From the sequence record NC_004928.1: a DNA stretch of 64,000 bases, one strand, 5' to 3'. Numbering within the stretch: the stretch's first letter is position 1; each line of letters starts with the position of its first letter. Shown piece after piece: positions 33,400 to 53,310 of the stretch. Below the pieces are notes generated by a model. It was given only the letters and a program-made list of their open reading frames with translations, did no database searches and was not told the DNA's origin. Source of the stretch: Escherichia phage RB69. The translations under genes and the position numbers were made by a program.

Positions 33400-33408
33400 A
33401 ATTAACCC

Positions 33409-34224: not shown

Positions 34225-34266
34225 AAAGAGTCTCTTAATAGGTTTAACACATCAATAAATTCAGCT

Positions 34267-34888: not shown

Positions 34889-34892
34889 TTTA

Positions 34893-35180
34893 TTAGAACC
34901 TCATCTGAAAGCCATGTGATTTAACATTACCGCCGCCAATATCAGAAATGTTAATTTCACTTGCAATCGAAGGATCGATGTCAATTTCACGATTAAGTTT
35001 AGTGATAGCCAAAGTATCATGCCCATTTACTGTACGAAACTCCAAAGGACATACTACGTTGACATAGTGTTTAATTGACTCGCTAGTAGGTTGCAAATGG
35101 ACCGGAAGGTTTTTAGGTGCTTTAGAGAAAACAACTTCACAAAAGTTTTTGCGGGTATCAAAATAAGTGGTCATAAACAT
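34893..35180 (-). CDS. Hypothetical protein (95 aa; start MFMTTYF)
   Basis: ORF 34893..35237; SD GAGGAAA precedes the ATG at 35180; upstream ORF sequence is a UUCG-type hairpin (35198-35213). Confidence 0.5.
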   Translation of the reverse strand: MFMTTYFDTRKNFCEVVFSKAPKNLPVHLQPTSESIKHYVNVVCPLEFRTVNGHDTLAITKLNREIDIDPSIASEINISDIGGGNVKSHGFQMRF

Positions 35181-35220
35181 AATATTTTCCTCAATTGGGA
35201 AGCCGAAGCTCCCAGTTAAA

Positions 35221-35586
35221 TTAGATATCGAATTCATTAAGAACTACATCAAAGATTGCTTCGAGATGTTCAGGTTTAGCTCGGTTACTCAGGATATGAC
35301 GAATCCAAGTTTTAACCAAAAGTTTACGATTAACACCGTTCCAGCAAGGATGAGTACCTAAATCACGCTGACGGAAATCATCATCTAATGCAATTTTGAA
35401 GTTGGAACCTTCCATCGTGATTGAAACCGTGATGCCATTTTCAAATCGCATATAAACGTAATTAGGAGTCATGCACTGTTCGATTTCACAAACTGTACCG
35501 TTTTTGTGTTTCCATAAGCAAATAACTTCAGAAGAACCAGCGATACCGTTAGAAACATATTTACGTTCGAAGTTGATGTAGTTCAT
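35221..35586 (-). CDS. Hypothetical protein (121 aa)
   Basis: ORF with GGAG SD; preceded by a PeSL-like promoter cassette. Confidence 0.55.
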   Translation of the reverse strand: MNYINFERKYVSNGIAGSSEVICLWKHKNGTVCEIEQCMTPNYVYMRFENGITVSITMEGSNFKIALDDDFRQRDLGTHPCWNGVNRKLLVKTWIRHILSNRAKPEHLEAIFDVVLNEFDI

Positions 35587-35614
35587 TTTATTCTCCAGAT
35601 GTTTAAGTTGTTTG

Positions 35615-35656
35615 TTGGTACAGGTCTATAATAACATATCCTGTACCAAAGTAAAC
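35615..35656 (-). promoter_or_regulatory. Early promoter (GTTTAC, 17 nt, TATTAT) with the -10 inside a perfect 10-bp inverted repeat (TTGGTACAGG/CCTGTACCAA); PeSL-like
   Basis: Read on reverse complement. Confidence 0.6.
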
Positions 35657-35661
35657 ATTTT

Positions 35662-36033
35662 TTATTTGATTTTTGTCCACTTAGCTGAATCAATAACACC
35701 TTTTGCTTTAATCTTCTCGATTAATGACTCTGCGCGATTTCTGGCATTTTCGTACCATACAACGTCTTCAGAGTAACCAGTTTCTTCATCTTCGTAAGTT
35801 TTAGAACGAATACAGCCATAAACTGTAGAATTCAGACGGTAAATTTCACCAGTGAAAAAGTTTTCGATTTCGATATGATAACAAAAATCGTCTGAAGGGC
35901 CATCAGGAGTTGTACAATAAACCACATCACCTTGAACTGAACGAACCATCCACTGTAACTCGTTAACAACTTGAGATTTATATCCATCATGGTCACGGCA
36001 TTTAATTGTAGCATTTAAATTGATAGTGTTCAT
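35662..36033 (-). CDS. Hypothetical protein (123 aa)
   Basis: ORF; same translation-initiation context as the neighbouring 121 aa gene. Confidence 0.55.
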   Translation of the reverse strand: MNTINLNATIKCRDHDGYKSQVVNELQWMVRSVQGDVVYCTTPDGPSDDFCYHIEIENFFTGEIYRLNSTVYGCIRSKTYEDEETGYSEDVVWYENARNRAESLIEKIKAKGVIDSAKWTKIK

Positions 36034-36074
36034 TTTATTCTCCGGTTGTTTTATTGATTAGGTGGTACAAGTCT

Positions 36075-36103
36075 ATAGAAACACATCCTACAGGAGAGTA
36101 AAC
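36075..36103 (-). promoter_or_regulatory. Putative early promoter (GTTTAC, 17 nt, TTCTAT), a diverged copy of the 35615-35656 cassette
   Basis: About 75 percent nucleotide similarity to 35581-35661 by eye. Confidence 0.4.
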
Positions 36104-36134
36104 ATCTTTTTAAACTTTTTCTGCCCTAAACGCA

Positions 36135-36157
36135 CAAAAGGGAGACCGAAGTCTCCC
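36135..36157 (-). terminator. Rho-independent terminator (GGGAGAC-UUCG-GUCUCCC plus U-run) after the small basic-protein gene
   Basis: Same 18-nt hairpin as at 13234 and 50032. Confidence 0.75.
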
Positions 36158-36162
36158 TAAAA

Positions 36163-36342
36163 TTATGCAACAACCTTTCCAAAACGAGAAGCATCATCTC
36201 GAAGAACTGCACGTGCTCTGCGCATGATCTTCTCAACGGTTTGATTAATACGAGAGTTCGACCCACGCTTGTATCCAGCGCGTTTAGAGGTACCATCAAC
36301 TTTCTTTTCAACTGCTTTCTTTGCTTTAGCTTGTTTTGCCAT
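36163..36342 (-). CDS. Small lysine/arginine-rich protein (59 aa), missed by the ORF track
   Basis: MAKQAKAKKAVEKKVDGTSKRAGYKRGSNSRINQTVEKIMRRARAVLRDDASRFGKVVA; T4-typical codons; terminator immediately downstream. Confidence 0.55.
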   Translation of the reverse strand: MAKQAKAKKAVEKKVDGTSKRAGYKRGSNSRINQTVEKIMRRARAVLRDDASRFGKVVA

Positions 36343-36605
36343 TATAAATTCTCTTTAAATGAAAATGCAGGACTTATTGGCGTTGCCTGCGCAAGCCCTC
36401 AACGGGAACATAGGTTTTGGATATTTAACGACAGGATAACCATAAACCTCGTCATCATACCAACCACGACTTAGACAGATAACCTTTTTCTGACGCGTGA
36501 TAGTACAAAATACATTCAAGAGGTACACCGTAAAACTGCCGGGGTCTTAAAACTATAATGATTCGCAAATCATTAATCAGACAGTTCGACGGCTCCTCGA
36601 TTTAC
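36343..36605 (-). pseudogene. Probable decayed small gene (30.9-like position) between rIII and the basic-protein gene
   Basis: No intact ORF, but protein-like segments in two frames (…RIIIVLRPRQFYGVPLECILYYHASEKGYLSKS… then …GWYDDEVYGYPVVKYPKPMFPLRACAGNANKSCIFI-stop). Confidence 0.3.
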
Positions 36606-36854
36606 TTACTTCAGGGTAATAACAAAATGACGTACTGCTTTACGAGCCGCAGAAGCCAGAGGCTTAGCAAATTTCAGTTCATCTTTAGCTTCCAGTTCAG
36701 CAGCCAGAGTAGCCTGAGCAGGATTCAGATGTTTGAAATAACGCAGGATTTCCAGTGCTTCGGCTTCAACATCAATAGATGCGCCGTAATTGTCATGGCC
36801 GTTATTCCATGCATGGCGTTGCAGTTCAAGAGCGTGTTGTAATTGTTTAATCAT
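36606..36854 (-). CDS. rIII: rIII lysis-inhibition accessory protein
   Basis: 82 aa, same length and position as T4 rIII. Confidence 0.85.
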   Translation of the reverse strand: MIKQLQHALELQRHAWNNGHDNYGASIDVEAEALEILRYFKHLNPAQATLAAELEAKDELKFAKPLASAARKAVRHFVITLK

Positions 36855-36978
36855 TTTAAATTCTCAATTCGAGATAATATTTAGTAGCCACGTTCTTCTG
36901 AATTTCACCTTCTTTCGACAAGTCTCTCAGTTGTAGGCTACCGCTTAGAAGAGTGTTCTCTTCATATAGTTATTTATA

Positions 36979-37311
36979 TCACTTATAAAGACACGGAATA
37001 GCTTTATAGTGGCATGTTACGAATTTCTGTTTAATTTCTTTAGGTTGTTTAAGTCCCAAAGCCACAAATGGATGTGGAACATTTCGAATTTGTCCAACCG
37101 GTAGTGGAGTCAAATCACCGACTTCAACAAAACCTTCAGGAACATCAGGACCTACAGAATGAACTACACATAGTTCAGGAACTTCACCTTGAACACGTTT
37201 ACCAATCACAAGTCCTGATTCAGTAACTTCTTCATCACCTGCTTGAGCGGGTTCAGAAACCAGAATGACATATTCACCAACAGCACGAATTGGGAGTTGT
37301 ACTTCAGACAT
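36979..37311 (-). CDS. 31: Co-chaperonin gp31 (GroES analogue)
   Basis: 110 aa; mobile-loop-like region; synteny. Confidence 0.88.
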
Positions 37312-37368
37312 CTTATTTCCTTGTTGTTTGACGATAGATTAATAATACCATACTATTCGTAAAGCATA

Positions 37369-37665
37369 TTACATAAGAAGCAAACGTTCGACCGGAGTAC
37401 CATCAACCGAAATTACTTTATCAAGGCGGAAAGAACGCCACTGACCTAACTTGGTATCGAATGCTCGAACTGATTCACGAGGTTCAGAACGAACTTCTGT
37501 TGCCGGATTGTTATTTTCATATTTGACTTCAAGTTCATCGCGCGAGGCAAACATCGTACGAATATCACCGTTAGCCTTTTCAAATACAACACAATGAACG
37601 CCTACAGACAGAATAGTTTTAATACGTTCACGAAGAACCATAGTTTCTTGTTCAGTTAAAATCAT
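37369..37665 (-). CDS. Hypothetical protein (98 aa) downstream of cd
   Basis: ORF 37369..37677; ATG at 37665 (MILTEQET...) sits directly after the inferred ancestral cd stop. Confidence 0.55.
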   Translation of the reverse strand: MILTEQETMVLRERIKTILSVGVHCVVFEKANGDIRTMFASRDELEVKYENNNPATEVRSEPRESVRAFDTKLGQWRSFRLDKVISVDGTPVERLLLM

Positions 37666-37741
37666 ATTATTCACCACAAAAGTTTCGGATTTGTTCCCAA
37701 TTCAGAGAACGAAGATTATTACCGAGAAGTACTGAATTACT

Positions 37742-38251
37742 TCAATACCAGCTTGGTTTTAGAATGTCTGCCCAATTTTCAGGAGATCGGTTGTATAATT
37801 CTGCGTATACAACCTTTTTAATACCTGACTGCGTAATAGCTTTAGTGCAATCAGGACACGGAGAAAGCGTAGTATATAACGTAGCGCCTTCAATAGAATT
37901 ACCTTTACGAGCTGCAAACAAAATTGCATTCAATTCCGCATGGATTTCGTTATTAGCAGACCATGCACTATGAGCGGCCCGATGTTCTTTAGCCAAAACA
38001 AAATTATCTGCCCGTCCAAATGCTGTAGTGCCTTCTTTATGTCCAGCAACGATGGCCGGGCTTGATTTATTCTTCAACCAACCATTTTCGGATGCATGTT
38101 CGCAACAGTTAACGCCACCTGCGGGTGAACCATTATATCCAGTAGAGATAATGCGTCCATCTTTTTCAATGACCGCACCAACTTTCCATGAACAACATTT
38201 TGATTCTTGAGAAATCAAATAAGCAATTTGAAGATATGTGCTAGCTTTCAT
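37742..38251 (-). CDS. cd: dCMP deaminase, apparently truncated at the C-terminus by 3' frameshifts
   Basis: Zinc-binding motifs HAELNAI and PCPDC; N-terminus matches recalled T4 Cd; ORF is 169 aa versus about 193; remaining C-terminus readable in shifted frames to 37667. Confidence 0.85.
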   Translation of the reverse strand: MKASTYLQIAYLISQESKCCSWKVGAVIEKDGRIISTGYNGSPAGGVNCCEHASENGWLKNKSSPAIVAGHKEGTTAFGRADNFVLAKEHRAAHSAWSANNEIHAELNAILFAARKGNSIEGATLYTTLSPCPDCTKAITQSGIKKVVYAELYNRSPENWADILKPSWY

Positions 38252-38502
38252 TATAGTGTTCCGTATACGCGAGTTGCTTCAACTAAACCGTCACTGCCTA
38301 ATTTAAGGCTAGTAATCTGGTCACCATCTTTAGGATTAACGATTATGAGAAAAGAACGTGGAGATTCTTGAATAACTCGTAATGTTGCATCTTGGAAACG
38401 TTCAGACACCTTATTGATGAGTGCTTGAGCAAATTCTTGTACTTTAATCTGAAATTCGTGTACTGTAATTGGGGTTTCACTTAGCCTTTCGATTTCCCTC
38501 AT
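38251..38502 (-). CDS. Hypothetical protein (83 aa; cd.x)
   Basis: ORF. Confidence 0.5.
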   Translation of the reverse strand: MREIERLSETPITVHEFQIKVQEFAQALINKVSERFQDATLRVIQESPRSFLIIVNPKDGDQITSLKLGSDGLVEATRVYGTL

Positions 38503-38516
38503 TGTGTTGGTAGAGT

Positions 38517-38547
38517 TATAGTATCACAACTCCACCATGTTGTAAAC
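38517..38547 (-). promoter_or_regulatory. Putative early promoter (GTTTAC, about 19 nt, TACTAT) with a short inverted repeat flanking the -10
   Basis: Read on reverse complement. Confidence 0.35.
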
Positions 38548-38549
38548 CA

Positions 38550-38825
38550 TTAAATTGCTTTGCATTCAATTTTTTGTGTACCGAAATTGATATCACATTG
38601 GATAACTAAATCACCGTCAAGATCAAATACCACTATGACGTGTGCAGACCCAGGGAGAAGAGTAATAGCAATAGAATCTACTTGGTCTGGGAGCAAAGCA
38701 TTGAGTACATGAGTTAGTTGAGCATGAACTCTGAGTTCGGCTGCATTATCAAGCACTTCAAACATATTATTAGCAATAATCTGACTGAAGACTACCTTTA
38801 CAATTTCAGAATAAGTTGGGAACAT
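38550..38825 (-). CDS. Hypothetical protein (91 aa; cd.x)
   Basis: ORF. Confidence 0.5.
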   Translation of the reverse strand: MFPTYSEIVKVVFSQIIANNMFEVLDNAAELRVHAQLTHVLNALLPDQVDSIAITLLPGSAHVIVVFDLDGDLVIQCDINFGTQKIECKAI

Positions 38826-38832
38826 AATTACC

Positions 38833-39057
38833 TCAGTGTACAGTATTTACTTTAACTCGAACAACAAATCGCTCGGTCGGTTCACCTACAGGAACAAACT
38901 CTACATGATATTCGCCTTTGTAACGAGTATTCAGATCATTACGAATTCCTGCGAGTTTGTTGATTAATGTAGGACTCATATTAAGTCCCACTAGTTTACG
39001 AAGCATTTTGTATGCTTCATCTTCGATTTCATGATGTTTATCGTACATAGTTTTCAT
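38833..39057 (-). CDS. Hypothetical protein (74 aa; cd.x)
   Basis: ORF. Confidence 0.5.
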   Translation of the reverse strand: MKTMYDKHHEIEDEAYKMLRKLVGLNMSPTLINKLAGIRNDLNTRYKGEYHVEFVPVGEPTERFVVRVKVNTVH

Positions 39058-39228
39058 TTAACCATTCAATTGCCTGGTCGACGTTATCAAATATACCGCC
39101 GTCCAAACGTTCTTCATGCTCATAGTCCAGCACATCAATACCGAACTGTCCATTTACTAAAGGCCAGGCTACAAACAAATATTCTTTATGCTGTTCGATG
39201 GCCTCAATCACTTCATATAATCGTTTCA

Positions 39229-39229
<1 letters not shown>
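39038..39229 (-). CDS. Hypothetical protein (63 aa; cd.x)
   Basis: ORF. Confidence 0.5.
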
Positions 39230-40315
<1,086 letters not shown>

Positions 40316-40316
<1 letters not shown>

Positions 40317-40615
40317 TATTTTATTCCTAAGAAAGTTTCAAGAATACGAATGTTATGCTCGCGTCGGTCTTTATTAATTTCAGCAACGTTTTTATTAATT
40401 GACGTACTTCTAACGTTTGAAGAAATAAATTTAATCATATGACTTTTGAGTTGTTGCAAATCCAAACCTTTTTCTTTAGCAGCTTTACGAAGAGCTTTAC
40501 CTGCTTCATCTAGGGCCTTTGCTGCATCTTTATCATAATTGACAAGTGACATTCCACGGCAGATATCAATATACTCATCCGACCATTTGATGTAATTTTC
40601 TAGTAATATTTTCAT
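40316..40615 (-). CDS. Hypothetical protein (99 aa)
   Basis: ORF preceded by a strong early promoter. Confidence 0.5.
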
Positions 40616-40643
40616 TTAGATTTCCTCAATTATCCATAGGAGC

Positions 40644-40673
40644 ATTATACTCTGCTCCCGAGAGTTTGTAAAC
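40644..40673 (-). promoter_or_regulatory. Early promoter (GTTTAC, 17 nt, GTATAAT) with a 6-bp inverted repeat (GGAGCA/TGCTCC) flanking the -10
   Basis: Read on reverse complement. Confidence 0.6.
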
Positions 40674-40897
40674 TATTTTACTAAAGATTCGATATACTCA
40701 TGAAGAGCTTTAGTCGCTACTGCCCACTTGTTCTGATATTCATTTTTCAGATTAGCACGAGACTGAACTAACAAGCGGTCATTAGTCGGAGGCAAAGATT
40801 CTAATCGTTGAATCTGACGGCCATAAATCATAGCCGCCATTTCAGATTCATAGATAAGCCCTTTAATGTATTCATGCTGTTCTTTAGTCATTGGCAT
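40673..40897 (-). CDS. Hypothetical protein (74 aa)
   Basis: ORF. Confidence 0.5.
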   Translation of the reverse strand: MPMTKEQHEYIKGLIYESEMAAMIYGRQIQRLESLPPTNDRLLVQSRANLKNEYQNKWAVATKALHEYIESLVK

Positions 40898-41178
40898 TTT
40901 TCCTCTTTTAAACCACTACGATAATAACATAACATAGTCTTCTGGTCATGTACATATCTTTTTACGTCGTTTAACCAGATACGAAATTCTTGAGAGTCTT
41001 CAAATGGCATTCCAACCCATGGATTACCATCAATAACCTTTACTTGCCATTTCTGGTTATATTCAACAATAGATTCAGGCCATTGCGGATGTAAAGTTTC
41101 TTTAGGGCTTAAGGGCACATCCTGGGCACATCCAGCCAAAATGCCAATAGATAATACAACTGCGGTTAATTTAATCAT
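40888..41178 (-). CDS. Outer-membrane spanin (o-spanin lipoprotein)
   Basis: Signal peptide with lipobox LAGC (ILAGCAQ); 4-nt overlap with the upstream i-spanin-like gene. Confidence 0.65.
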   Translation of the reverse strand: MIKLTAVVLSIGILAGCAQDVPLSPKETLHPQWPESIVEYNQKWQVKVIDGNPWVGMPFEDSQEFRIWLNDVKRYVHDQKTMLCYYRSGLKEEKCQ

Positions 41179-41531
41179 TCTGAGAGCTTCCTGAGGTCTT
41201 CTGCAAAGGAATCGAAGGACCTGTTGATTTGTTTTTCGACCAATCCTGGTTTACTTGCCACCACGTTCTTCTTCTTCGAATCCTTACGGAGCTTTTCATT
41301 TTCGGCCTTAAGTTGGTCAACTAAAACACGGTTCTTATAAGTCATTTCTTCGATTGACTGATATTGAACCTTGAAGTCGTCTAATACTTTAGCATTGTTT
41401 TTAGCGGTCTCTTTGACAGAAGCTAATTCAGTATTCAACGAATCAACTTTGTTGTTTAAGACAACTATTGTTACCGTAGAAACTAGAGCAAAAGCTGCTA
41501 CTATAGCATAAATCGGATTTACTTTAAGCAT
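41175..41531 (-). CDS. Inner-membrane spanin (i-spanin)
   Basis: N-terminal TM segment (IYAIVAAFALVSTVTIVVL) then coiled-coil-like region; adjacent to the o-spanin. Confidence 0.65.
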   Translation of the reverse strand: MLKVNPIYAIVAAFALVSTVTIVVLNNKVDSLNTELASVKETAKNNAKVLDDFKVQYQSIEEMTYKNRVLVDQLKAENEKLRKDSKKKNVVASKPGLVEKQINRSFDSFAEDLRKLSE

Positions 41532-42019
41532 GTTTTAATAATCTCAATGATTTCATCTCGGGATAATCCATTGATAAGAACGGTTTTCAAACCATCACAC
41601 TGGATTTTGTACGATTCAAACAATACACACAACTCTTCTGCTGTATGATACGGGCTTGAAATTCCGAGGCGGTTGAATTTGTCGGTAAGAGGGTCGCAAA
41701 TGATGTAGAATTTTATACCTGCGATATGTACGTTTGGTTGACTAATATTAATGAACACATTAGCGTCGTATTTAGTCAAATTATTTTGAAGAAATTCTAC
41801 CATGGCATTAACTGCTTCCGGCATCGCTTCGCGTTTCTCTTCAGCGTATCGGGTGGAATACTCTTTTTGTTTTACTTTCTTTTTAAGATTTTTGGCCAGT
41901 GTAACACGGAGGTCAGTAAGATAACCAACTGGACGTCCTTTCTTAAAGACTCGGATTCCGTCAGTTGTGTCTCCAAAAGCGGTTACGACCATATCGTTAG
42001 TAATCAATTGCATATTCAT
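41519..42019 (-). CDS. alc: Alc-like protein (host transcription shutoff); identity by position only
   Basis: ORF 41519..42082; SD GAGGAG precedes the ATG at 42019 (MNMQLITNDM...), giving 166 aa; lies between the spanins and rnlA as in T4. Confidence 0.55.
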   Translation of the reverse strand: MNMQLITNDMVVTAFGDTTDGIRVFKKGRPVGYLTDLRVTLAKNLKKKVKQKEYSTRYAEEKREAMPEAVNAMVEFLQNNLTKYDANVFINISQPNVHIAGIKFYIICDPLTDKFNRLGISSPYHTAEELCVLFESYKIQCDGLKTVLINGLSRDEIIEIIKTCLK

Positions 42020-42049
42020 AATTTTCTCCTCGTGTTGTTGATAAAAGCC

Positions 42050-42079
42050 ATAGTAACACCTTCCTTGGTGTTTGTAAAC
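42050..42079 (-). promoter_or_regulatory. Putative early promoter (GTTTAC, 18 nt, TACTAT) upstream of alc
   Basis: Read on reverse complement. Confidence 0.4.
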
Positions 42080-42081
42080 CA

Positions 42082-43215
<1,134 letters not shown>

Positions 43216-43233
43216 TCAGTTAGTTTTTTTTAA

Positions 43234-43263
43234 ATTGTACCACAATCCTTGTGGTATGTAAAC
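43234..43263 (-). promoter_or_regulatory. Early promoter (GTTTAC, 18 nt, TACAAT) upstream of rnlA, with a CCACAA/TTGTGG inverted repeat in the spacer
   Basis: Read on reverse complement. Confidence 0.55.
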
Positions 43264-43673
43264 TACTTTTTCTTATGTTGGATATTCCAAGGCGGGTTGA
43301 ACTTTTTGATAAAAAGTGGTTCTTCAAGGTCCATTGTTGCGATGGTCATTGAACCAAGTTCGTTGGTGACTGAAAGGTCAAAACATTGGCGGGCCCAGAA
43401 TTCAACCTTTTTGCCTTGCATTAAGGCATCCAAAATCATAAGTGATTTTCTTGAATCTGAAGTCTGGTCTTTTCGATTTATGGCTGTTCGATAATAGTTA
43501 ATGCGTTTCTTTAAATTCTTGGTTTTACCAATATACACAAGTTCGTCATCTATAGCAATAGCATATATAACATTTTTCTTATTAGGGGCATCAATGGTTT
43601 TAATTGTTGCATCTTCTAATAGCTCCAATTCTATATATTTAATAAAGGAATATTCGGCGGCAATATCTTTCAT
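43263..43673 (-). CDS. denA: Endonuclease II (GIY-YIG)
   Basis: 136 aa, same length as T4 endo II; GIY-YIG-like VIYAI...YIGKT. Confidence 0.9.
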   Translation of the reverse strand: MKDIAAEYSFIKYIELELLEDATIKTIDAPNKKNVIYAIAIDDELVYIGKTKNLKKRINYYRTAINRKDQTSDSRKSLMILDALMQGKKVEFWARQCFDLSVTNELGSMTIATMDLEEPLFIKKFNPPWNIQHKKK

Positions 43674-43681
43674 AATAAAGT

Positions 43682-43695
43682 GGGACCGAAGTCCC
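43682..43695 (-). promoter_or_regulatory. Intercistronic UUCG hairpin (GGGAC-UUCG-GUCCC) between nrdB and denA
   Basis: Read directly. Confidence 0.5.
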
Positions 43696-43699
43696 GTCC

Positions 43700-44872
43700 T
43701 TAGAAATATTTTTTGTATGAATTGATTACATTTTGGTCTACATCATTATCAATTTGTGCGACAAGATAAGAACTGATTTCAACTTCCTGAGGAGCTGCTT
43801 GAACTAAATCAGAGTTCAGATATTCACGAATCCAAGGATACGGATGCTTGGTCGGAGCATCAGTAATTGGACATGGCAAACCGCACTGTTTCATACGAGA
43901 CACAGTCAAGTAATCAACAAAAGCACACATACTCTGTGTATTGATACCTGGACATGTACCGTCTTTAAAGAGGTGTGCAGCCCATTCCTTGTACTTGACT
44001 ATTAACTTCCATAAAAATGTCAACTGCTTCTTGTTCACATTCTTTAGCAATTTGAACCCACTCATCGCCATCAGTACCAGATTGAAGTTGACGGATAATG
44101 TACTGAGTACCCTGAGATGGAGTTGTTCGTCACGAGCAATGAACTTCATAATCTTTGCATTACCTTCCATAATTTCCATATTTTTATGGAAGTTGAAAGT
44201 ACATGCAAATGATACGTAAAAACGAATAGCTTCTAAGGCGTTGATAACATGCAAACAGAGATAAAGAGACTTCATTAAATCGCGCTTGGCGTTAAACATT
44301 ATTTCTTCGTACATCTCAATATCATTCTGCTGGCATGAGCCTATTGAACACTCATAAACTTCCTTAGCATTTTCCCAATTACGAGTCTTGACTAGAACAT
44401 CGTCATAATATTTACCTATTGATTCAGCTCGTTTCATGATTGCTTCGTCTAATACAATCTCATCAAATACTTTGGATGGATCGGTATAAAGATTTCGCAT
44501 AATATGAGTATATGAACGAGAGTGAATAGTTTCACTGAATGTCCATGTTGCAACCCACGTATCTAATGAAGGGTCGGAAATCAGTGCCATAAGTACCGCA
44601 GATGGGGCCCTGCCTTGGATAGAATCCAATAATGATTGATACTTAAGATTGTTTGTACAGATGTCCTGTTGGAACTGAGGAAGCTTATTGAACTGTGCAG
44701 AGTCCAACATCAAGTTTACCTCTTCGGGGCGCCAGAAAAATGACAGGATTTCTATAAGTTCTTCAAAAACTTTATGACGCTGAATATCATACCGTGCAAG
44801 ACCAAGACCAGAACCAAAGAACATCGGTTCGTTCAAAACATCGACTTGTTGTGTATTAAAAACTGTACTCAT
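43700..44872 (-). CDS. nrdB: Ribonucleotide reductase small subunit NrdB; intron-less, ORF open but about 43 codons after the RDE.LHL iron-ligand motif appear out of frame
   Basis: 390 aa ORF; in-frame IARDEQLHL then atypical codons; shifted frame gives GTQYIIRQLQSGTDGDEWVQIAKECEQEAVDIFMEVNSQVQ, resembling recalled E. coli NrdB [39 protein letters not shown]. Confidence 0.85.
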   Translation of the reverse strand: MSTVFNTQQVDVLNEPMFFGSGLGLARYDIQRHKVFEELIEILSFFWRPEEVNLMLDSAQFNKLPQFQQDICTNNLKYQSLLDSIQGRAPSAVLMALISDPSLDTWVATWTFSETIHSRSYTHIMRNLYTDPSKVFDEIVLDEAIMKRAESIGKYYDDVLVKTRNWENAKEVYECSIGSCQQNDIEMYEEIMFNAKRDLMKSLYLCLHVINALEAIRFYVSFACTFNFHKNMEIMEGNAKIMKFIARDEQLHLRVLSTLSVNFNLVLMAMSGFKLLKNVNKKQLTFLWKLIVKYKEWAAHLFKDGTCPGINTQSMCAFVDYLTVSRMKQCGLPCPITDAPTKHPYPWIREYLNSDLVQAAPQEVEISSYLVAQIDNDVDQNVINSYKKYF

Positions 44873-44927
44873 TATATTTTCTCACTTAGTTATTAACTCA
44901 TCCATGAGTAAATTATAATCAAAAGTC

Positions 44928-47183
44928 TTAAAGCTTACAAGCAGAGCAATCTTCAGCTTTAGGTGTTTCTAATTCATAGTCATCTGTACCTGACCCATCA
45001 CGAGTGTTATGATAGTAGAGATTTTTTCCGCCAAAGTACCAGAAGTAAAGCAGATCGTCAAGCATTACCGACATTGGCACTTTACCTTTCTCAAATACAG
45101 CAGGGTCATAATAAGTATTAGCAGAAGCAGATTGGCACACCCATTTCAACATGATAGCAACTTGGGTCAAATAAGGTTTATTACCTTTCTTAGCAAGTTT
45201 CCACGCGTAGTCGTAAAGACTCATGTTATGTTCGATATTAGGAACAACCTGTCGGAAGTTGCCTTCTTTAGATTCTTTAATACTTACAGGTCCACGAGGT
45301 GGTTCTATACCATTTGTGCTATTTGAGACTTGACTGCTTGATTCACATGGCATGAGAGCACTAAGTGTACTGTTACGAATTCCATGTTCTTTTGAGTTCA
45401 GCTCGAAGTTCTTCCAGTCACAGACGTAGTTCGGGGCTGCGATTTGGTCAATCTTTTTATTGTACCAGTCGATAGGTAATTCGCCTCTAGACCATTTAGT
45501 GTCTGAATAATACTCACAAGGTCCTTTTTCTTTGGCGAGTTTGATTGAAGCTTTGATAAGGCCATATTGCAATCTCTCGAACAATTCATGAGTCAAATAG
45601 TTAGCGTCTTCATATGAAGCAAAGTTAGAAGCTAACCATGCAGCATAGTTCGTCACACCGACACCGAGATTTCGACGCTTTTTAGCTTTTAAAGCTTCTG
45701 GAACCGGATAATCTTGATAGTCTAACAGGTTATCAAGTGCACGTACTTGTACTTCAGCAAGTTCATTAATTTTATCTTGGTCTTGCCAATCAAATTTATC
45801 TAATACAAAAGCAGATAACGTGCATAAACCAATTTCAGCATCAGGACCATTCACATCATTAGTTGGAATAGCGATTTCACAACATAAGTTACTCTGACGA
45901 ATTGGAGCTTTTTCACGAATAAACGGAGTGTAGTTATTCGTGTTATCAACAAACTGTGGATAAATTCGAGCAGTACCAGAACGTTCAGTCATGAACAATT
46001 CAAAGAGTTCTAGTGCTTTGATTCTTTTCTTTCTGATTGTTGGGTCTTTTTCAGCTTTCTCATAAAGCTCACGGAATTTATCTTGATCTTCAAAGAATGA
46101 GTAATATAGTTCGCCTGACATTTCGTGAGGGCTAAATAAAGTAATATAATCATTTTTACCAAGGCGTTCCATCATGAGGTCATTAATCTGAATTCCGTAG
46201 TCCATATGTCGAATACGGTTTTCATCCACGCCTTTGTTATTTTTCAGAACTAATAGGTTCTCTACTTCTAAGTGCCACATTGGATAATACGCTGTAGCAG
46301 CACCACCACGAATACCACCTTGAGAACAAGATTTTACTGCAGTTTGGAAATGTTTCCAGAATGGAATAACACCCGTATGTCGAACTTCACCCATACCGAT
46401 CTTAGAACCTTCTGCACGAAGCATACCAACGTTGATACCGATACCAGCTCGTTTAGAAATATATTCAATAATTGATGCTGAAGTTTTGTTAATAGATTTT
46501 AACGAATCACCGGCTTCAATAACTACACAACTAGAGAACTGGCGAGTTGGAGTACGAGCACCTGCCATAATTGGGGTTGGCAATGAAACTTGATGAGTAG
46601 AAACGGCATCATAAAAACGAATAATATGTTTCAAACGGTCATGAGTTTCGTCTTGGTGTAAGGCCATGCCAATAGCCATGATAGCAAACTGGGGAGTTTC
46701 ATAAATCTTACCAGTTGTTTTATCTTTAACCAGGTATTTTTCTTTAAGCTGCATAGCACCAGCATAAGTCAGATCAAAATCTCGCTCATGTTTAATCCGA
46801 GAATCAAGATAAATGATTTCTTCTGCAGAATATCTAGACAACAACTCAGGATCATATTTGCCTTCATTAACACAATAAGAAATATGGTCGATAAAAGCAG
46901 GCGGTTCAAACTGCCCATATACATCTTTACGAAGTGCAAACATTAGCCCTTTGGCGGCGACATACTGATAATCAGGTTCTTCGACAGAAATCGAGTTAGC
47001 TGCAACTTTAATACAAATCTTCTGGATATCTTTGGTGCTCATCCCGTCGACAAGATGGGTCTTAATTTCTTCGTACAATTCATATGGGTCGATTTGTGTT
47101 CCTTCACATTGCCAAGTTAAGACTTGAATAATTTTCTGTGCATCAAAATTTTGGGATACACCACTGCTCTTAGTTACTTGCAT
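44928..47183 (-). CDS. nrdA: Ribonucleotide reductase large subunit NrdA
   Basis: 751 aa; active-site region SNLCCEIA, C-terminal redox cysteines (CSACKL); alignable with recalled E. coli NrdA. Confidence 0.95.
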   Translation of the reverse strand: MQVTKSSGVSQNFDAQKIIQVLTWQCEGTQIDPYELYEEIKTHLVDGMSTKDIQKICIKVAANSISVEEPDYQYVAAKGLMFALRKDVYGQFEPPAFIDHISYCVNEGKYDPELLSRYSAEEIIYLDSRIKHERDFDLTYAGAMQLKEKYLVKDKTTGKIYETPQFAIMAIGMALHQDETHDRLKHIIRFYDAVSTHQVSLPTPIMAGARTPTRQFSSCVVIEAGDSLKSINKTSASIIEYISKRAGIGINVGMLRAEGSKIGMGEVRHTGVIPFWKHFQTAVKSCSQGGIRGGAATAYYPMWHLEVENLLVLKNNKGVDENRIRHMDYGIQINDLMMERLGKNDYITLFSPHEMSGELYYSFFEDQDKFRELYEKAEKDPTIRKKRIKALELFELFMTERSGTARIYPQFVDNTNNYTPFIREKAPIRQSNLCCEIAIPTNDVNGPDAEIGLCTLSAFVLDKFDWQDQDKINELAEVQVRALDNLLDYQDYPVPEALKAKKRRNLGVGVTNYAAWLASNFASYEDANYLTHELFERLQYGLIKASIKLAKEKGPCEYYSDTKWSRGELPIDWYNKKIDQIAAPNYVCDWKNFELNSKEHGIRNSTLSALMPCESSSQVSNSTNGIEPPRGPVSIKESKEGNFRQVVPNIEHNMSLYDYAWKLAKKGNKPYLTQVAIMLKWVCQSASANTYYDPAVFEKGKVPMSVMLDDLLYFWYFGGKNLYYHNTRDGSGTDDYELETPKAEDCSACKL

Positions 47184-47218
47184 ATATTCCTCAGTATAGG
47201 TTGATAGACATTACTCCA

Positions 47219-47270
47219 AACGGGATAGTATTTATCCCGTTAATTTATTATACACTTTTAAACTGAAGCG
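47219..47270 (-). promoter_or_regulatory. nrdA leader: possible MotA-type middle promoter (CGCTTCA box, 12 nt, GTATAAT) followed by a 9-bp-stem hairpin (AACGGGATA/TATCCCGTT)
   Basis: Read on reverse complement; the MotA box is a 6 of 7 match. Confidence 0.4.
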
Positions 47271-47525
47271 TTAATTATTCTTAGCAATAATTTCTTTGTA
47301 TTCTTTAGGTGTCAAGACTGTGATATCGAAATAAACCAATGGTTCTTTTTCCATACCGTAACCACCACAAAATTCACGATATTCATAAATTCGTTCATGT
47401 GAATAACAAATGAATCGTTCACCTTTAACTGTGATTTCACTATTCGGTGAAGGGATATCTAGTTCGGTAGGATTTTTCATTTCAAAAATTGTGGTGCCAT
47501 ATGAATTAATAAAACGTAAAATCAT
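47271..47525 (-). CDS. Hypothetical protein (84 aa) between td and nrdA
   Basis: ORF. Confidence 0.55.
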   Translation of the reverse strand: MILRFINSYGTTIFEMKNPTELDIPSPNSEITVKGERFICYSHERIYEYREFCGGYGMEKEPLVYFDITVLTPKEYKEIIAKNN

Positions 47526-48386
47526 TTATACCGCCATTTTAGCTTTGATAGTTGGATGAGATTCGTAATTTTTAAGAACGAAATCAGAATGTGTCATCGT
47601 TCCAGTAACCCAGTCCATTTGGATTTTTGTAGGCCAATTCTCAAAATTACTAGGCCAATTAATTTCAAGAGAACACAACTCTTTAGGTTCACGACGAAGA
47701 ACTTCTTTGCATTGTTCTACATGATTGCTGTAGATATGCGTGTTGCCGCCTGAGAACACTAAATCACCCGGGATAAGGTTACACATCTTCGCTACAATAT
47801 GCGTCAAGGCAGCGTACGAGGCGATGTTGAACGGCAGGCCCAAGAAAACATCTACACTGCGTTGATACCATTGTAAATCAAGATGTCCATTACGCACATT
47901 AAATTGATAGAACATATGACAAGGAGGAAGAGCCATTTGGTCAATTTCGGCAGGGTTCCATGCAGAAACTATTTGTCGACGATCATTAGGAAGAGCTTTA
48001 ATACGGTCGATAGTTTTGACCAATTGGTCTACACCACCAAAATCACGCCATTGCTTACCATAAATAGGACCAAGTTCGCCGCTATGATATCCAAGGTCTT
48101 TTGCCTGATTTTCATAGTTGTCGTCCCAAATAGTTTTACCTTCAATTAGACTACCATGAGTACGAATACGCAAATCATTAACATTGGTAGAACCAGACAT
48201 GAACCACAGTAGTTCGGCAATACAAGCTTTCCATGCAAGCTTCTTGGTTGTTACTGCAGGGAATCCTTTAGTCAGGTCCCATCGCAATTTAGTTCCGAAC
48301 AGGGCAATAGTGCCTGTGCCTGTACGGTCGTCTGTTTCGTAGCCATTTTCTAGGATATCATTAATCAGGTATTGGTATTGTTTCAT
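47526..48386 (-). CDS. td: Thymidylate synthase (uninterrupted, no intron)
   Basis: 286 aa continuous ORF, same length as spliced T4 TS; active-site region PPCH present. Confidence 0.95.
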   Translation of the reverse strand: MKQYQYLINDILENGYETDDRTGTGTIALFGTKLRWDLTKGFPAVTTKKLAWKACIAELLWFMSGSTNVNDLRIRTHGSLIEGKTIWDDNYENQAKDLGYHSGELGPIYGKQWRDFGGVDQLVKTIDRIKALPNDRRQIVSAWNPAEIDQMALPPCHMFYQFNVRNGHLDLQWYQRSVDVFLGLPFNIASYAALTHIVAKMCNLIPGDLVFSGGNTHIYSNHVEQCKEVLRREPKELCSLEINWPSNFENWPTKIQMDWVTGTMTHSDFVLKNYESHPTIKAKMAV

Positions 48387-48970
48387 TTATACACGCTCTC
48401 AGTAATTTCGGTGAGTTCATCGATTCTGTAGTAATGAGATTCTACCATAGAACGTTGAAGCATAATATCTTGGACGAAATCTTTATCAAGTTGAACATCG
48501 GAATTAACACGACATTTCTTAATGATTTTAGTCATCACGATTTCATCGGCATAAGGCAGTGCTTGTTTTAATAATGCAGGACCACCAATAACCGAGACAT
48601 CAACATGTTCAGTAGAAAGTTTAAACGGTACGTCGGTTGAAGGGCTAAACAGGTTAATTTCACCACCCATTACCAAGGTAATAAATTCTGCTTGGGTGAT
48701 ATAGAACCGTGCAAGTTCATCAGTTTTAGTCCTAGGCAGTTTTCTGGCCATATCAGTGACAACCATATGAGTACGATCTGGTAGTAGACGAGGTAATGAT
48801 GCAAAAGTCTTAGCACCCATAACCATTACAGTGTTTTTAGTGCGAGCAACAAAGTTACTCATATCTTGTTTGATATGCTTCCATGGAAGTCCATCACCTA
48901 ATCCAAAAGCATATTCCAGTTTATCATCAACTGTTTTAGACGGTGCGCATGCGAATACTAATTTAAGCAT
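48383..48970 (-). CDS. frd: Dihydrofolate reductase
   Basis: 195 aa; alignable with recalled T4 DHFR; 4-nt overlap with td. Confidence 0.9.
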   Translation of the reverse strand: MLKLVFACAPSKTVDDKLEYAFGLGDGLPWKHIKQDMSNFVARTKNTVMVMGAKTFASLPRLLPDRTHMVVTDMARKLPRTKTDELARFYITQAEFITLVMGGEINLFSPSTDVPFKLSTEHVDVSVIGGPALLKQALPYADEIVMTKIIKKCRVNSDVQLDKDFVQDIMLQRSMVESHYYRIDELTEITESVYK

Positions 48971-48973
48971 TTT

Positions 48974-49222
48974 TTATTTCCTCAGATTTTTCTTAATAAC
49001 TTTCCAATCAGCTTTGAACATTTCAACGTCGGAGTGGTGAATCCAGAATCCTGCGCTTTCACCGTCTTCGTAGAGTGGACATCCATCACATTCTTCGTTC
49101 CAACCCATTTCACGTAAAGCTTCTTCAGCTTGTTCAAGGAGTTCAGCGTCTTTACCGACGATGTTGAAGTACCATTTACCTCTAACTTCTGAATCTTTGA
49201 TGCTCTGGCGTTGCAATCTCAT
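48974..49222 (-). CDS. Hypothetical protein (82 aa; frd.1-like)
   Basis: ORF. Confidence 0.5.
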   Translation of the reverse strand: MRLQRQSIKDSEVRGKWYFNIVGKDAELLEQAEEALREMGWNEECDGCPLYEDGESAGFWIHHSDVEMFKADWKVIKKNLRK

Positions 49223-49247
49223 TTTATTCTCCTCTTCACTTTTATTT

Positions 49248-49286
49248 GATAGGGCTACTATAAAATAGCCCTATCTTGTTATAAAC
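49248..49286 (-). promoter_or_regulatory. Putative early promoter (GTTTAT, 17-18 nt, TATAGT) with the -10 inside a perfect 10-bp inverted repeat (GATAGGGCTA/TAGCCCTATC); PeSL-like
   Basis: Read on reverse complement. Confidence 0.45.
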
Positions 49287-49678
49287 TACTTTTTAAAAGT
49301 TTTTTGCAAAAGTTTGATGATTTCGTCGACGTTGGTTTCATCTACGATACAATGGATTTTTGTTACACCTAAAGTTATACCTTCGTTAGTAGGTTGAGGC
49401 TTTACTAAATCTACCTCAGTAAAGTATTTGAACTCATCATAATAAATCTCAAAATAAGTTTCAATTTCACCACCGGCAGAACATACAGTACCATCTTCCA
49501 TAGTTACACTTACTACGTTTGACGTATCGCTATCATAATCAGGTTCCATTCCGTTTACAACAAAACTAGGCCCGTGGAGTTCAATCAATTTTAACATCTT
49601 AGCGTTACTGTGTGGTGCTTCTTGAACAAAGTCGTCTTTAAATAAAGGGTTAATGATATAAGATTTTCCAATTTCCAT
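49286..49678 (-). CDS. Hypothetical protein (130 aa; frd.2-like)
   Basis: ORF 49286..49777; SD GAGGAAA before the ATG at 49678 (MEIGKSY...), avoiding overlap with the upstream gene. Confidence 0.5.
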   Translation of the reverse strand: MEIGKSYIINPLFKDDFVQEAPHSNAKMLKLIELHGPSFVVNGMEPDYDSDTSNVVSVTMEDGTVCSAGGEIETYFEIYYDEFKYFTEVDLVKPQPTNEGITLGVTKIHCIVDETNVDEIIKLLQKTFKK

Positions 49679-49688
49679 TTTGATTTCC

Positions 49689-49940
49689 TCATTTGTTGAT
49701 GTGTTGTAATAAAGATTCTGCAAACGTCTCATATGATTCCAGGTGTTCTTCTTTAATGCGAACTGCATGATTATCACCCGAAGAATAGAACATCTGTACG
49801 ATAAGAGCTTCGTAATCAGACGAAATACATGCTACGTTTTCCGGCTTCAGGCATTCATTGTATGTCGCAACTGGGTCAGTGAAAGCTGCAACGTTTTTGC
49901 TACCGCAGTAATCCATACTTCTTTGAATAATAAAAATCAT
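49689..49940 (-). CDS. Hypothetical protein (83 aa; frd.3-like)
   Basis: ORF. Confidence 0.5.
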   Translation of the reverse strand: MIFIIQRSMDYCGSKNVAAFTDPVATYNECLKPENVACISSDYEALIVQMFYSSGDNHAVRIKEEHLESYETFAESLLQHINK

Positions 49941-49970
49941 TTTATTTTCCTCTCATTTGTTGATAAGTCT

Positions 49971-49999
49971 ATAGTATCATGTTTAAAGGAAAAGTAAAC
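49971..49999 (-). promoter_or_regulatory. Early promoter (GTTTAC, 17 nt, TACTAT) upstream of the frd.3-like gene
   Basis: Read on reverse complement. Confidence 0.5.
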
Positions 50000-50025
50000 A
50001 ACTTTTTTTGGCAATTTACAGATAC

Positions 50026-50049
50026 TCAAAAGGGAGACCGAAGTCTCCC
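50026..50049 (-). terminator. Rho-independent terminator downstream of gene 32 (GGGAGAC-UUCG-GUCUCCC plus U-run)
   Basis: Third identical copy of the 18-nt hairpin. Confidence 0.75.
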
Positions 50050-50056
50050 TAATTTA

Positions 50057-50956
50057 TTATAGACCAGCTAACAGGTCATCGAGGTCGCCATCGTCAGAAG
50101 ACGAGGAACTCATGAAGTCATCTTCAGTTTTTGCAGAACTAAAGGCTTCCATGTCTTTATCAAAATCGTCGAGGTCAGAAGCAACTTTATCTGCAACAGA
50201 AGCTGCTGCGGCTGCTGCACCACCCAGAGCGGCAGTACCAAGAACTTGATTAAATTTAGTATTCAATTCTTCAAACGATTTGAACTTATCTTTAGAAGTC
50301 ATTTCAGAAAGGTCAACCATTTGTTCGAACAATTCTTTCTGGAAAGATTCATCATCAATGTTTGGAATCGCAGATTGATTCAGGAATTTAGATTCGTCAT
50401 AGTTACTGAAACCAGAAACCTGTTTAACTTTCAGCACAAAGTTAGCACCTTCCCATGGACAAGTTACATCAACAGGAGTTTCACCCATTTCAGTATCAAC
50501 TGCAATCATTGCATTGATTTTGTCCCAAATCTTTTTACCAAAACGGTATTTGAATACCTTACCTTCATTATCTGGAGCTTGTGGGTCTTTAACAACCAGA
50601 ATATTAGCCCAATAAGAAGTTTTACGTTTCAGTTGAGAATATTCAGTTTTGTTGGTATTGTACAGGTCATTTTTACTAATGTACTGACATACAGGACAAG
50701 AGTCATAATCGCCGTGTGTAGATGAACAGGTTTCAATATACCATTTGCCATTTTTCTTGAACCCGTGGTTAACAAGAATTGCAAACGGAAGTGCGTCATC
50801 TGTTTTTGCCGGCAGGAAACGAATTACCGCTTGACCATTACCGGATGCATCGAGTTTCAGCTTCCATTCACCTTTATCTTCTGAAGAGAAACCTTTGTTA
50901 CCATTCAGTTTAGCCATCTGAGCTGCGAGGTCTGCGGTACTTTTACGTTTAAACAT
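50057..50956 (-). CDS. 32: Single-stranded DNA-binding protein gp32
   Basis: 299 aa; N-terminal [23 protein letters not shown] and acidic C-terminus match recalled T4 gp32. Confidence 0.95.
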
Positions 50957-51043
50957 TATATTTACCTTTATTTAGATTATTTAATTTATTTACAGTTGGT
51001 TGCTACGACACTTATACCTCGTAGCTGGTATGATTTATTTATA
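50957..51043 (-). promoter_or_regulatory. Gene 32 leader: late promoter TATAAATA (51036-51043), stem-loop, and A/U-rich unstructured region before the SD (autoregulatory operator-like)
   Basis: Minus-strand tttTATAAATAaatc, inverted repeat GCTACGAGG...GTCGTAGC, then a long AU-rich tract. Confidence 0.55.
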
Positions 51044-51072
51044 AAGTAATTTTAACACAGATAAAATAAAGC

Positions 51073-51726
51073 TTAATACTTACATGATTTTATTGTTTCT
51101 ATGAACAATTTCTTAGCAGCATTTACATCGATTTGAAGTATTTTTCGATATGCCTTTAATTTGGTAGAATAATTTTGCCAGACTAAATTGTCAGTAAGTT
51201 CGTCATGCTTATCTATAATATTCAAGAATGAATCCAACAACAAGAAGGTTTCAAACGAAATTATATTGCTTTGTAGCAATTTAAATATGTAGCTCGACTG
51301 AACTTTATTATTATAATCAAATATCTCTTGAAGCGCACTAACTTCCACTTTCTTACTGAAATAGTAGATGTTACGTACATCTTCAGCAAACGTCTCCTTG
51401 GCTTGTTTGAGACGTCCAATATATTCCCTATAGAAAACTAATGCATCAGCGTCTGATATCTCACCAATCCATGCATCTTGGTTAGCAACTAAGTTACTGA
51501 TGAATATCAAAGTGAGTTCCTTTAACTTATATTTCTCTGCTAGTTTCTCAAAGAAATATTTATCTCGGCGTTTTTGATATGCATTATCCGAAACACGCAT
51601 GCACCAGTTATATTTGATTACGTCATACCGACCATTAAAATGTTGTTTGCACATCAAGTATAGTTTGTATACCGATTTTCCATTAATATAACGTTCTCCG
51701 TCGGGAGGCATGCGTATTTTAATCAT
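51073..51726 (-). CDS. 59: Helicase loader gp59
   Basis: 217 aa, same length and position as T4 gp59. Confidence 0.9.
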   Translation of the reverse strand: MIKIRMPPDGERYINGKSVYKLYLMCKQHFNGRYDVIKYNWCMRVSDNAYQKRRDKYFFEKLAEKYKLKELTLIFISNLVANQDAWIGEISDADALVFYREYIGRLKQAKETFAEDVRNIYYFSKKVEVSALQEIFDYNNKVQSSYIFKLLQSNIISFETFLLLDSFLNIIDKHDELTDNLVWQNYSTKLKAYRKILQIDVNAAKKLFIETIKSCKY

Positions 51727-52061
51727 AATAAGAAATCTAACGTATTAGTTTTTTCACCACGAGCAACTGATGGGCGAAGCATGTTTTCGTCAATTGCTTC
51801 GCTTGTAATTTTTTCAACAATTCCTGTAGGAATAAATTTAGCAAATTGTGTTTCTGGAATAGAATTTTCTTCCAAGAAAGCAGTTGTTGCTTCTAAATAA
51901 GACATACCAAATTGTTCAACCATGGATTCGATAATGAATCCGTTTTCTTGACGGTCAAGCAATTTAGCGATATCATCTTTATCATGTTTTACTGCTAATT
52001 CTTGTTCAGATAAACCGGTCTCATCAACCGGTTTAATATCACTTAGTGAAAACTGTGTCAT
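51723..52061 (-). CDS. 33: Late transcription co-activator gp33
   Basis: 112 aa, same length as T4 gp33; synteny. Confidence 0.9.
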   Translation of the reverse strand: MTQFSLSDIKPVDETGLSEQELAVKHDKDDIAKLLDRQENGFIIESMVEQFGMSYLEATTAFLEENSIPETQFAKFIPTGIVEKITSEAIDENMLRPSVARGEKTNTLDFLL

Positions 52062-52308
52062 AAAGCTCGACTACCTCTTCGTTTTCAGCTTCAAATTGGT
52101 CACGAGCATCTTTATGATAAAGAGCTAACAAACGATTAAACATTTTTCCATCAACGCCAAGCTCTTCTTTAGCACGAGTACGAATGTCTTTAATCAGTTC
52201 ATTATAACCAGAAATTTTAAGTTTGTTATCGGAAGCTTCCTTGACTAGTTTAGCCAGTTCTTCACCATGCACATCTTGATTAAATTCAACTGCTTCTTTC
52301 TTAGCCAT
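52039..52308 (-). CDS. dsbA: dsDNA-binding protein DsbA
   Basis: ORF 52039..52326; SD GAGGTAA precedes the internal ATG (MAKKEAVEF...), giving 89 aa as in T4. Confidence 0.85.
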   Translation of the reverse strand: MAKKEAVEFNQDVHGEELAKLVKEASDNKLKISGYNELIKDIRTRAKEELGVDGKMFNRLLALYHKDARDQFEAENEEVVELYDTVFTK

Positions 52309-52359
52309 GTTTACCTCAGAATTCATTAATTACACTTGTTAATTTAGAAAGACCGGATT

Positions 52360-53232
52360 TTACAAGTATGAATAAATCTTGCCTTTAGGTTGTGGTTGAT
52401 ATGAGTTATAATACTCTATAATGGTTGAAGCAATATTATCAGGGATATAATCAAAATCAATGAGAACCAAATTTTCTTGGTACCGTTTATATTCTTCTGC
52501 ACTTAATAATACTTCAGCTTGAGAACGATCATTGGCAAGTGCTTCAATGATCGTTGTTTTCATGCTTGGAGTTCGTTCGCCTTCGACTCGAGTAAACCAG
52601 AAATCACCACGAACTCGAACAGACGCAACACCATCTTTACGGTCGCCTTTAAGAATTTTAGTCATGCAATCAATTTCGGCAGAACCATTCTTAATTTTAA
52701 CCCATTTTTTCTGCGGTGGCGACCACTGTTTAACGTTAGGGTATTTGTGTAATTGTGTAAAGTCACCATCTGATGCAACAATACACACCTTATGACCAGC
52801 TAATGACAAATATTTAGTTAATACGCCGATATGGTCATCCGCTTCGTATTTGTCAATATCCATTACAACGTATGGCATATATTTCTTAATCTCATCAACG
52901 ACTTGATGAAGTGCAGTAAAATATCCTTCCCAATCCCACTTTGAAGCTTCACGATCAGTTTTACGATTTTTCTTGTAGTAGTAAGCAAAGTCGCGTCGCC
53001 AATACCCAGAAGTAGCGTTATCCATGCACAATACAAATTTTGTATAACCTTGCTTACGGAACATCACTACGTTTTTACGAATTGAATTCAAGACTACATG
53101 ACGAACCATCGGAACGGTAATTTTATCACCATCTTCAAAGTTGTTTAATGCAGCTGCCAATGCAATGTTACTAAAGTCTGCAAGCGCAATACCTTCTTTG
53201 TAATCTTCATCCAACATCATTTCTAAATCCAT
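52360..53232 (-). CDS. rnh: RNase H (5'-3' exonuclease), C-terminus apparently truncated by a 3' frameshift
   Basis: 290 aa; N-terminus MDLEMMLDEDYKEGI matches recalled T4 RNase H; ends KIYSYL-stop while a shifted frame continues VKSGLSKLTSVINEF-stop. Confidence 0.9.
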   Translation of the reverse strand: MDLEMMLDEDYKEGIALADFSNIALAAALNNFEDGDKITVPMVRHVVLNSIRKNVVMFRKQGYTKFVLCMDNATSGYWRRDFAYYYKKNRKTDREASKWDWEGYFTALHQVVDEIKKYMPYVVMDIDKYEADDHIGVLTKYLSLAGHKVCIVASDGDFTQLHKYPNVKQWSPPQKKWVKIKNGSAEIDCMTKILKGDRKDGVASVRVRGDFWFTRVEGERTPSMKTTIIEALANDRSQAEVLLSAEEYKRYQENLVLIDFDYIPDNIASTIIEYYNSYQPQPKGKIYSYL

Positions 53233-53310
53233 ATGAACCTCTTGTTCAGTTAGTCAACTTAGACCATAGTAACATACTAGTTCGAAAGCGTAAATAGTCT
53301 TTTACTCATT

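Follow-up and report, generated by a model that had tools for sequence, protein, structure and literature searches.

The compensated double frameshift in nrdB of Escherichia phage RB69 is very probably an error of the reference sequence

The genus Mosigvirus has Escherichia phage RB69 (NC_004928) as its exemplar, and comparisons among T4-type phages use it as a standard reference. The question raised by its nrdB gene is whether two single-nucleotide indels that cancel each other out next to the diiron site are a property of the phage or a fault of its record. The original prediction had placed them at about 44113 and 43990 of the window (the whole 64,000-nt stretch of RB69 DNA analysed here, from record NC_004928.1) and had read them as a compensated double frameshift that preserves a full-length open reading frame (ORF). 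As a description of the deposited letters this was borne out. Alignment with related nrdB genes, initially the 4 closest public ones and then 13, locates a 1-nt deletion at about 44113 (CTCAAGGGT becoming CTCAGGGT) and one inserted base at 43993, next to a G>C change at 43991 (on the gene strand, CAAG-AGAAGG becoming CAAGTACAAGG). The A absent at about 44113 is present in all 13 related genes and in both RB69 SRA assemblies described below. As a result of the missing and the extra base the 41 codons between them are misread in a +1-shifted frame; the insertion restores the nrdB frame, and the ORF stays open with its scrambled stretch just after the RDE..H ligands. In the deposited frame ...IARDEQLHL is followed by RVLSTLSVNFNLVLMAMSGFKLLKNVNKKQLTFLWKLIVKY and then by KEWAAHLFKDG, and the alternative frame over the identical bases translates to GTQYIIRQLQSGTDGDEWVQIAKECEQEAVDIFMEVNSQ. 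The replacement of residues had been correctly foreseen and only the figure of roughly 43 has to be amended, to exactly 41; in a protein alignment of NrdB, 43 columns differ between the reference and the SRA assemblies and a relative. The coordinates of this and the other affected features are collected in Table 1.

Table 1. Features of the deposited nrdB gene and of other genes with the same kind of defect (window coordinates)
Feature	Position	Strand	Description
nrdB as deposited	43700..44872	(-)	390 aa ORF; product AAP76137.1 / NP_861928.1 (RB69 NrdB) / UniRef100_Q7Y4S0
Missing base	44112..44114	(-)	one A of AA in CTC-AAG-GGT absent from the window
Extra base 43993 and adjacent substitution 43991	43991..43993	(-)	gene strand GTAC vs GAG in all others
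Out-of-frame codons (n=41)	43991..44113	(-)	RVLSTL...IVKY instead of KGTQYIIRQLQSGTDGDEWVQIAKECEQEAVDIFMEVNSQE; translations, codon log-odds, protein alignment
Second indel cluster in nrdB, reference-only	44746..44749	(-)	GAAAAATCCTTG to GAAATCCTG, net -3; EKSLS to EILS
Substitution in nrdB, reference-only	44658	(-)	TTT>TGT, Phe>Cys in conserved DIFTNNLKYQ
nrdA compensated frameshift	45390..45416	(-)	reference WKNFELNSK vs WEELRAELK in RB69 SRA assemblies and relatives
alt (ADP-ribosyltransferase) gene	29309..31396	(-)	ORF keeps 695 aa
cd (dCMP deaminase)	37723-37792		reference-only +1 (37755), +2 scramble (37723-27), one substitution
rnh	52360..53232	(-)	reference-only 1-nt deletion at 52363, near 3' end
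pseT (polynucleotide kinase)	39709-39949		six reference-only substitutions in 240 nt; four change residues
Gene 30.3 homologue	34270-34273, 34527-34530	(-)	two reference-only multi-base scrambles

Codon usage separates the two frames in the manner that had been anticipated, with atypical codons in the annotated frame and typical ones in the shifted frame. The deposited frame of the 41-codon stretch scores -0.39 log2-odds per codon. Only 0.14% of the true-frame 40-codon windows in the RB69 genome fall that low, and such a value is what stop-free shifted windows usually give (mean -0.34). For the alternative frame the score is +0.60 log2-odds per codon, above all 126 stop-free shifted windows. 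Stop-free runs of 40 codons make up 9.4% of the windows in the corresponding shifted frame, so that an open nrdB ORF is in itself unremarkable.

The orthologous support that the annotated-frame peptide might have had was sought at the nucleotide and protein levels and was not found. In a base-by-base alignment both indels are absent from all 13 related nrdB genes, and a sequence identical to the window over a 181-nt stretch of the locus occurs in none of 243 matching phage records (best, 97.8%). In an annotated phage collection, from which RB69 itself appears to be missing, the best nrdB match reaches 97.3%; a lone partial match of at least 99% in the same collection leaves the 181-nt stretch uncovered and most likely represents a short invariant segment. 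At the protein level, the 390-aa NrdB stands alone in its 90%-identity cluster (exact look-up among about 15 billion proteins), and no protein in a collection of 5.8 billion clusters shares words with the scrambled peptide, a search in which RB69 NrdB itself was also not returned and may be masked in the index. The look-up of DenA gave relatives only, at 97.9% or less, since many Mosigvirus phages share an identical DenA. In the literature on RB69 nrdB and on RB69 resequencing, neither a defect of the gene nor a published correction was found.

A continuous NrdB of 391 aa (P0014) is found only in Logan, a set of de novo assemblies of public sequencing runs, where it occurs in 8 contigs. RnlA, encoded about 500 nt downstream of nrdB and identical in none of the relatives compared, served as an RB69-specific anchor for two of the loci. 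One of them, L018, is a 54-kb contig from SRR16634598 that shares 99.84% identity with positions 32079..53203 of the window; the other, L022 (SRR16629523), shares 99.77% with positions 32079..45637, and the remaining loci show 97.5% identity or less. Both encode P0014 exactly, are identical to each other across 13,559 bp and lack the indels at about 44113 and 43993. The use of gp35 and the baseplate-hub gene as further anchors led to contigs of the SRR166345xx, SRR166295xx and SRR292997xx accession series, among them one (L026) whose 11,396 bp of hypervariable tail-fibre and adhesin genes, gp37/gp38 included, match the window at 100.000% identity. Because of this 100.000% identity across the tail-fibre region, the SRA contigs are best taken as RB69 itself and not as a near relative, a label drawn from sequence identity; a search of the literature by run numbers returned no mention of these runs. 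The evidence is at the level of assemblies, and the nrdB region is covered by two series whose numbers lie close together (SRR166295xx and SRR166345xx) and whose source may be a single laboratory. The single continuous NrdB frame in these independent RB69 assemblies contradicts the idea that the frameshift belongs to the phage. What the original prediction said of the letters stands, and its biological reading does not.

Beyond what had been predicted, nrdB carries two more anomalies (44746-44749 and 44658) and its neighbouring genes show similar defects. The second indel cluster costs the protein one residue and falls 5 residues ahead of the conserved FFWRPEEV, at a place where E. coli R2 reads LIEKQLSFFWRPEEV. 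At 44658 a T is found in all 13 relatives and in both SRA assemblies, and the Phe that it specifies is conserved in E. coli R2. Three silent substitutions relative to the 13 genes complete the picture: that at 44004 is confined to the reference, and those at 44402 and 44282, being common to the window and the independent RB69 assemblies, are genuine RB69 polymorphisms. When 10 repaired versions of NrdB were looked up exactly, a single one proved to exist, namely P0014, in which all four anomalies are returned to the family consensus. Versions repaired in part (retaining EILS or the Cys, or reading QDKEW or QVKEW where the base is inserted) are absent from the protein collection, which indicates that all four nrdB anomalies go together.

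The protein encoded by the SRA assemblies has every appearance of an ordinary member of its family. Residues 3-387 of P0014 align with E. coli R2 chains (E = 3e-126), an alignment against PDB R2 chains that takes in IARDEQLHLKGTQYIIRQLQSGTDGDEWVQIAKECEQEAVDIFMEVNSQEKEWAAHLF and confirms that the shifted frame matches the E. coli R2 helix, as had been proposed. In it the out-of-frame stretch corresponds to about residues 243-283 of E. coli R2, and D84, E115, H118, Y122, E204, E238, H241, W48 and Y356 of the E. coli protein are all identities. The ligand and radical-pathway motifs of NrdB (LLDSIQGR, FSETIHSRSYTH, NALEAIRFY, IARDE.LHL, FFWRPEEV and SSYLV.QID) lie outside the scrambled stretch and are consequently present in the deposited ORF too. 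For PF00268 (Ribonuc_red_sm; cut-off 33.6) the deposited protein scores 103.1 bits versus 129.8 bits for the repaired or SRA version. The helical core that follows the second E..H motif is broken in the deposited sequence and continuous in the RB69 assemblies, and as core helices that come right after the second E..H ligand pair are replaced by the scramble, it is almost certain that the deposited protein would fail to fold. By its sequence, the real RB69 NrdB reads as a normal 391-aa class Ia R2. Its closest known counterparts are E. coli R2 and the NrdB of T4-type phages. RB69 nrdB is an ordinary phage gene between nrdA and denA, and its repaired product is nearly identical to the NrdB of other Mosigvirus phages; set against class Ia R2 proteins, the deposited form has 41 nonsense residues, lacks one residue and carries a Cys for a conserved Phe. 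The nrdA gene (44928..47183) lies immediately upstream on the same strand, and this order is kept in all related loci. Some close relatives have a 213-aa NUMOD3-domain gene, a mobE-like free-standing homing endonuclease, between nrdA and nrdB. In one of them, phage AV118, nrdB is in two pieces through an insertion that is probably an intron; the regions concerned in these relatives are L006:2158-2799, L015:7692-8333 and L009:2204-3974. RB69 has neither the NUMOD3 gene nor the nrdB insertion.

Comparison of the reference with the SRA assemblies over 13.5-64 kb revealed about 31 events, of which about 14 include indels as against 17 substitution events. At every event all covering SRA assemblies agree among themselves and against the reference, to which all the alleles are private, and wherever five other Mosigvirus genomes were aligned the SRA allele is the one found in relatives at nearly every site. 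Two accession series contradict the reference in the same way at 22819-21 and at 29813/29875. Assemblies disagree with one another only in single bases at contig ends (49178, 55817 and 63058). The spectrum of the discrepancies is error-like, with clusters, multi-base scrambles (34270-73, 34527-30 and 37723-27) and nearly half of the events involving indels, as opposed to about 15 mismatches per gap in the natural divergence of RB69 from its relatives. The private, clustered and indel-rich alleles extend across nrdA, nrdB, alt, cd, rnh, pseT, 30.3 and a baseplate gene. Most events fall within 29.8-52.4 kb, whereas 52.6-64 kb is free of them; the absence of any difference across the 11.4 kb of positions 52605-64000, which hold the tail-fibre genes gp34-gp38, means that the quality of the reference is very uneven along the genome. 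At 13548-13749, six transitions or transversions stand at the start of a contig (L032:1-210) in a region of single coverage; they may be an artefact of the contig end, real polymorphism or an error in the reference.

Several of the affected genes repeat the anatomy seen in nrdB. In nrdA two indels 23 nt apart, at 45413 and 45390, scramble 7 residues, and this reference-only pair explains why the exact NrdA of the window matches no record in the look-up. In alt, a reference-only +1 at 29813 and a -1 at 29982, about 169 nt apart and accompanied by substitutions at 29875 and 29971, leave a scrambled stretch in which 51 columns differ across 62, with the same construction as in nrdB. The deposited Cd protein has lost its C-terminus, with 169 aa where the RB69 SRA assemblies and the relatives have 193 aa, and RNase H has 290 aa versus 305 aa, the true C-terminus FVKSGLSKLTSVINEF being missing. 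In pseT the SRA assemblies match the relatives at 5 of the 6 sites, with the relatives split at 39829. In the 30.3 homologue, where all three covering SRA assemblies oppose the reference, one scramble reads CATAG on the gene (minus) strand of the reference versus AGACG in the SRA assemblies and most relatives. Throughout the affected genes, the SRA version equals that of the relatives at the protein level. Smaller differences of the same sort were also recorded: a reference-only +1 where a small DUF7320 gene begins, close to three substitutions (38410-38498); further reference-only sites among 36603, 36079 and 50050, which comprise a -1 at a stop-codon region and a +1 a short distance downstream of gene 32; and a reference-only 3-nt insertion at 22819-22821, contradicted by two accession series, that amounts to one extra Asp in a baseplate protein.

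Independent RB69 assemblies lack the indels, and many similar defects are private to the reference. With this evidence, the compensated double frameshift is very probably an error in the Sanger-era RB69 reference of 2003 (AY303349 / NC_004928) and no feature of the phage. A small chance is left for real mutations of the stock sequenced in 2003, either a -1 in a non-essential nrdB followed by an intragenic +1 suppressor or pseudogenisation during laboratory passage in hosts that supply a reductase of their own. It is well established that T4-type phages can do without their aerobic nrd genes when grown on normal E. coli (quasi-core table, PMC2993671), and a divergent stock would, like an erroneous record, place all differences as derived on the reference branch. 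Such a stock, however, needs some 31 private changes within 50 kb, with indels making up nearly half, when the natural gap-to-mismatch ratio against relatives is about 1:15; it also needs five separate compensated pairs spread over four genes (nrdA, nrdB twice, alt and cd) together with zero differences in the tail-fibre region. Moreover, with the core helices after the equivalents of the E238/H241 ligands replaced, a suppressor would not restore function or be selected. A still smaller chance attaches to the claim that the 2003 stock truly carried these lesions and grew normally with a crippled nrdAB (its R2 core scrambled) and altered NrdA, Alt, Cd and Rnh. If that were true, the phage would be fully dependent on host nucleotide metabolism and would tolerate paired frameshifts to a surprising degree.

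The reference might also be correct for RB69 and the SRA assemblies derive from a different, very close natural relative, as an identity of 99.8% rather than 100% over 32-53 kb could suggest. This is extremely unlikely in view of the 100.000% identity over 11.4 kb that includes the hypervariable gp37/gp38 adhesin genes. Two diverged isolates should each hold around half of the differences, yet none is private to the SRA assemblies; relatives carry the SRA allele at nearly every aligned site, indels abound among the differences, and it is the reference alone whose frames are broken by them. Programmed recoding, in which ribosomes would shift at about 44113 and back at about 43993 to yield a normal NrdB, has in its favour that the alternative frame encodes a perfect NrdB segment and that translational bypassing is established for gene 60 of T4-type phages. 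Nevertheless, the assemblies L018 and L022 have no indels and thus leave nothing to recode, their continuous frame refuting the proposal; the indels recur in 0 of 13 relatives and the window version of the 181-nt stretch in 0 of 243 phage records, and four other genes show the same pattern, which points to sequence error. The probability of recoding is negligible.

Under the preferred explanation of an error in the 2003 record, one base would have been dropped at about 44113, another added at 43993 and a third miscalled at 43991. With no stop among the intervening out-of-frame codons, gene callers would have seen a full-length nrdB, and the scrambled protein would have been annotated and propagated. 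The errors most likely stem from a low-coverage or low-quality stretch of reads, and hand edits that kept ORFs open may possibly have contributed. A precedent exists in T4 itself, where the comparison of five T4-like genomes prompted the resequencing and correction of uvsW (uvsW/uvsW.1; PMC1524935). There too a T4-type record misstated a frame and was exposed by relatives and resequencing; unlike in that case, the errors in RB69 nrdB cancel each other, so that no ORF is broken and ORF-based quality control sees nothing. In its formal anatomy the nrdB pair, with a -1 and a +1 close together around a misread stretch, is the same as the rIIB +/- pairs of Crick and Brenner. Those pairs, however, were in real phage DNA and in tolerant regions, whereas the RB69 nrdB pair is absent from independent sequence and falls in the core of the R2 fold.

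The consequences concern the record and those who rely on it. RB69 proteins are present in RefSeq and UniProt (NrdB as Q7Y4S0), and within the 64-kb window the deposited NrdB, NrdA, Alt, Cd, RNase H and PseT are wrong, some of them by dozens of residues. These errors are inherited by alignments, structure predictions, selection analyses and homing-site comparisons that use NC_004928 proteins; a homing-endonuclease study, for instance, took NC_004928 as the RB69 sequence (PMC2790892). Since compensated pairs escape ORF-based quality control, the record is worth flagging for correction, and the practical value of the finding is that of an erratum for a widely used RefSeq genome. Biologically it brings nothing new: the NrdB of RB69 is ordinary, and the double frameshift is an artefact of the sequence record.
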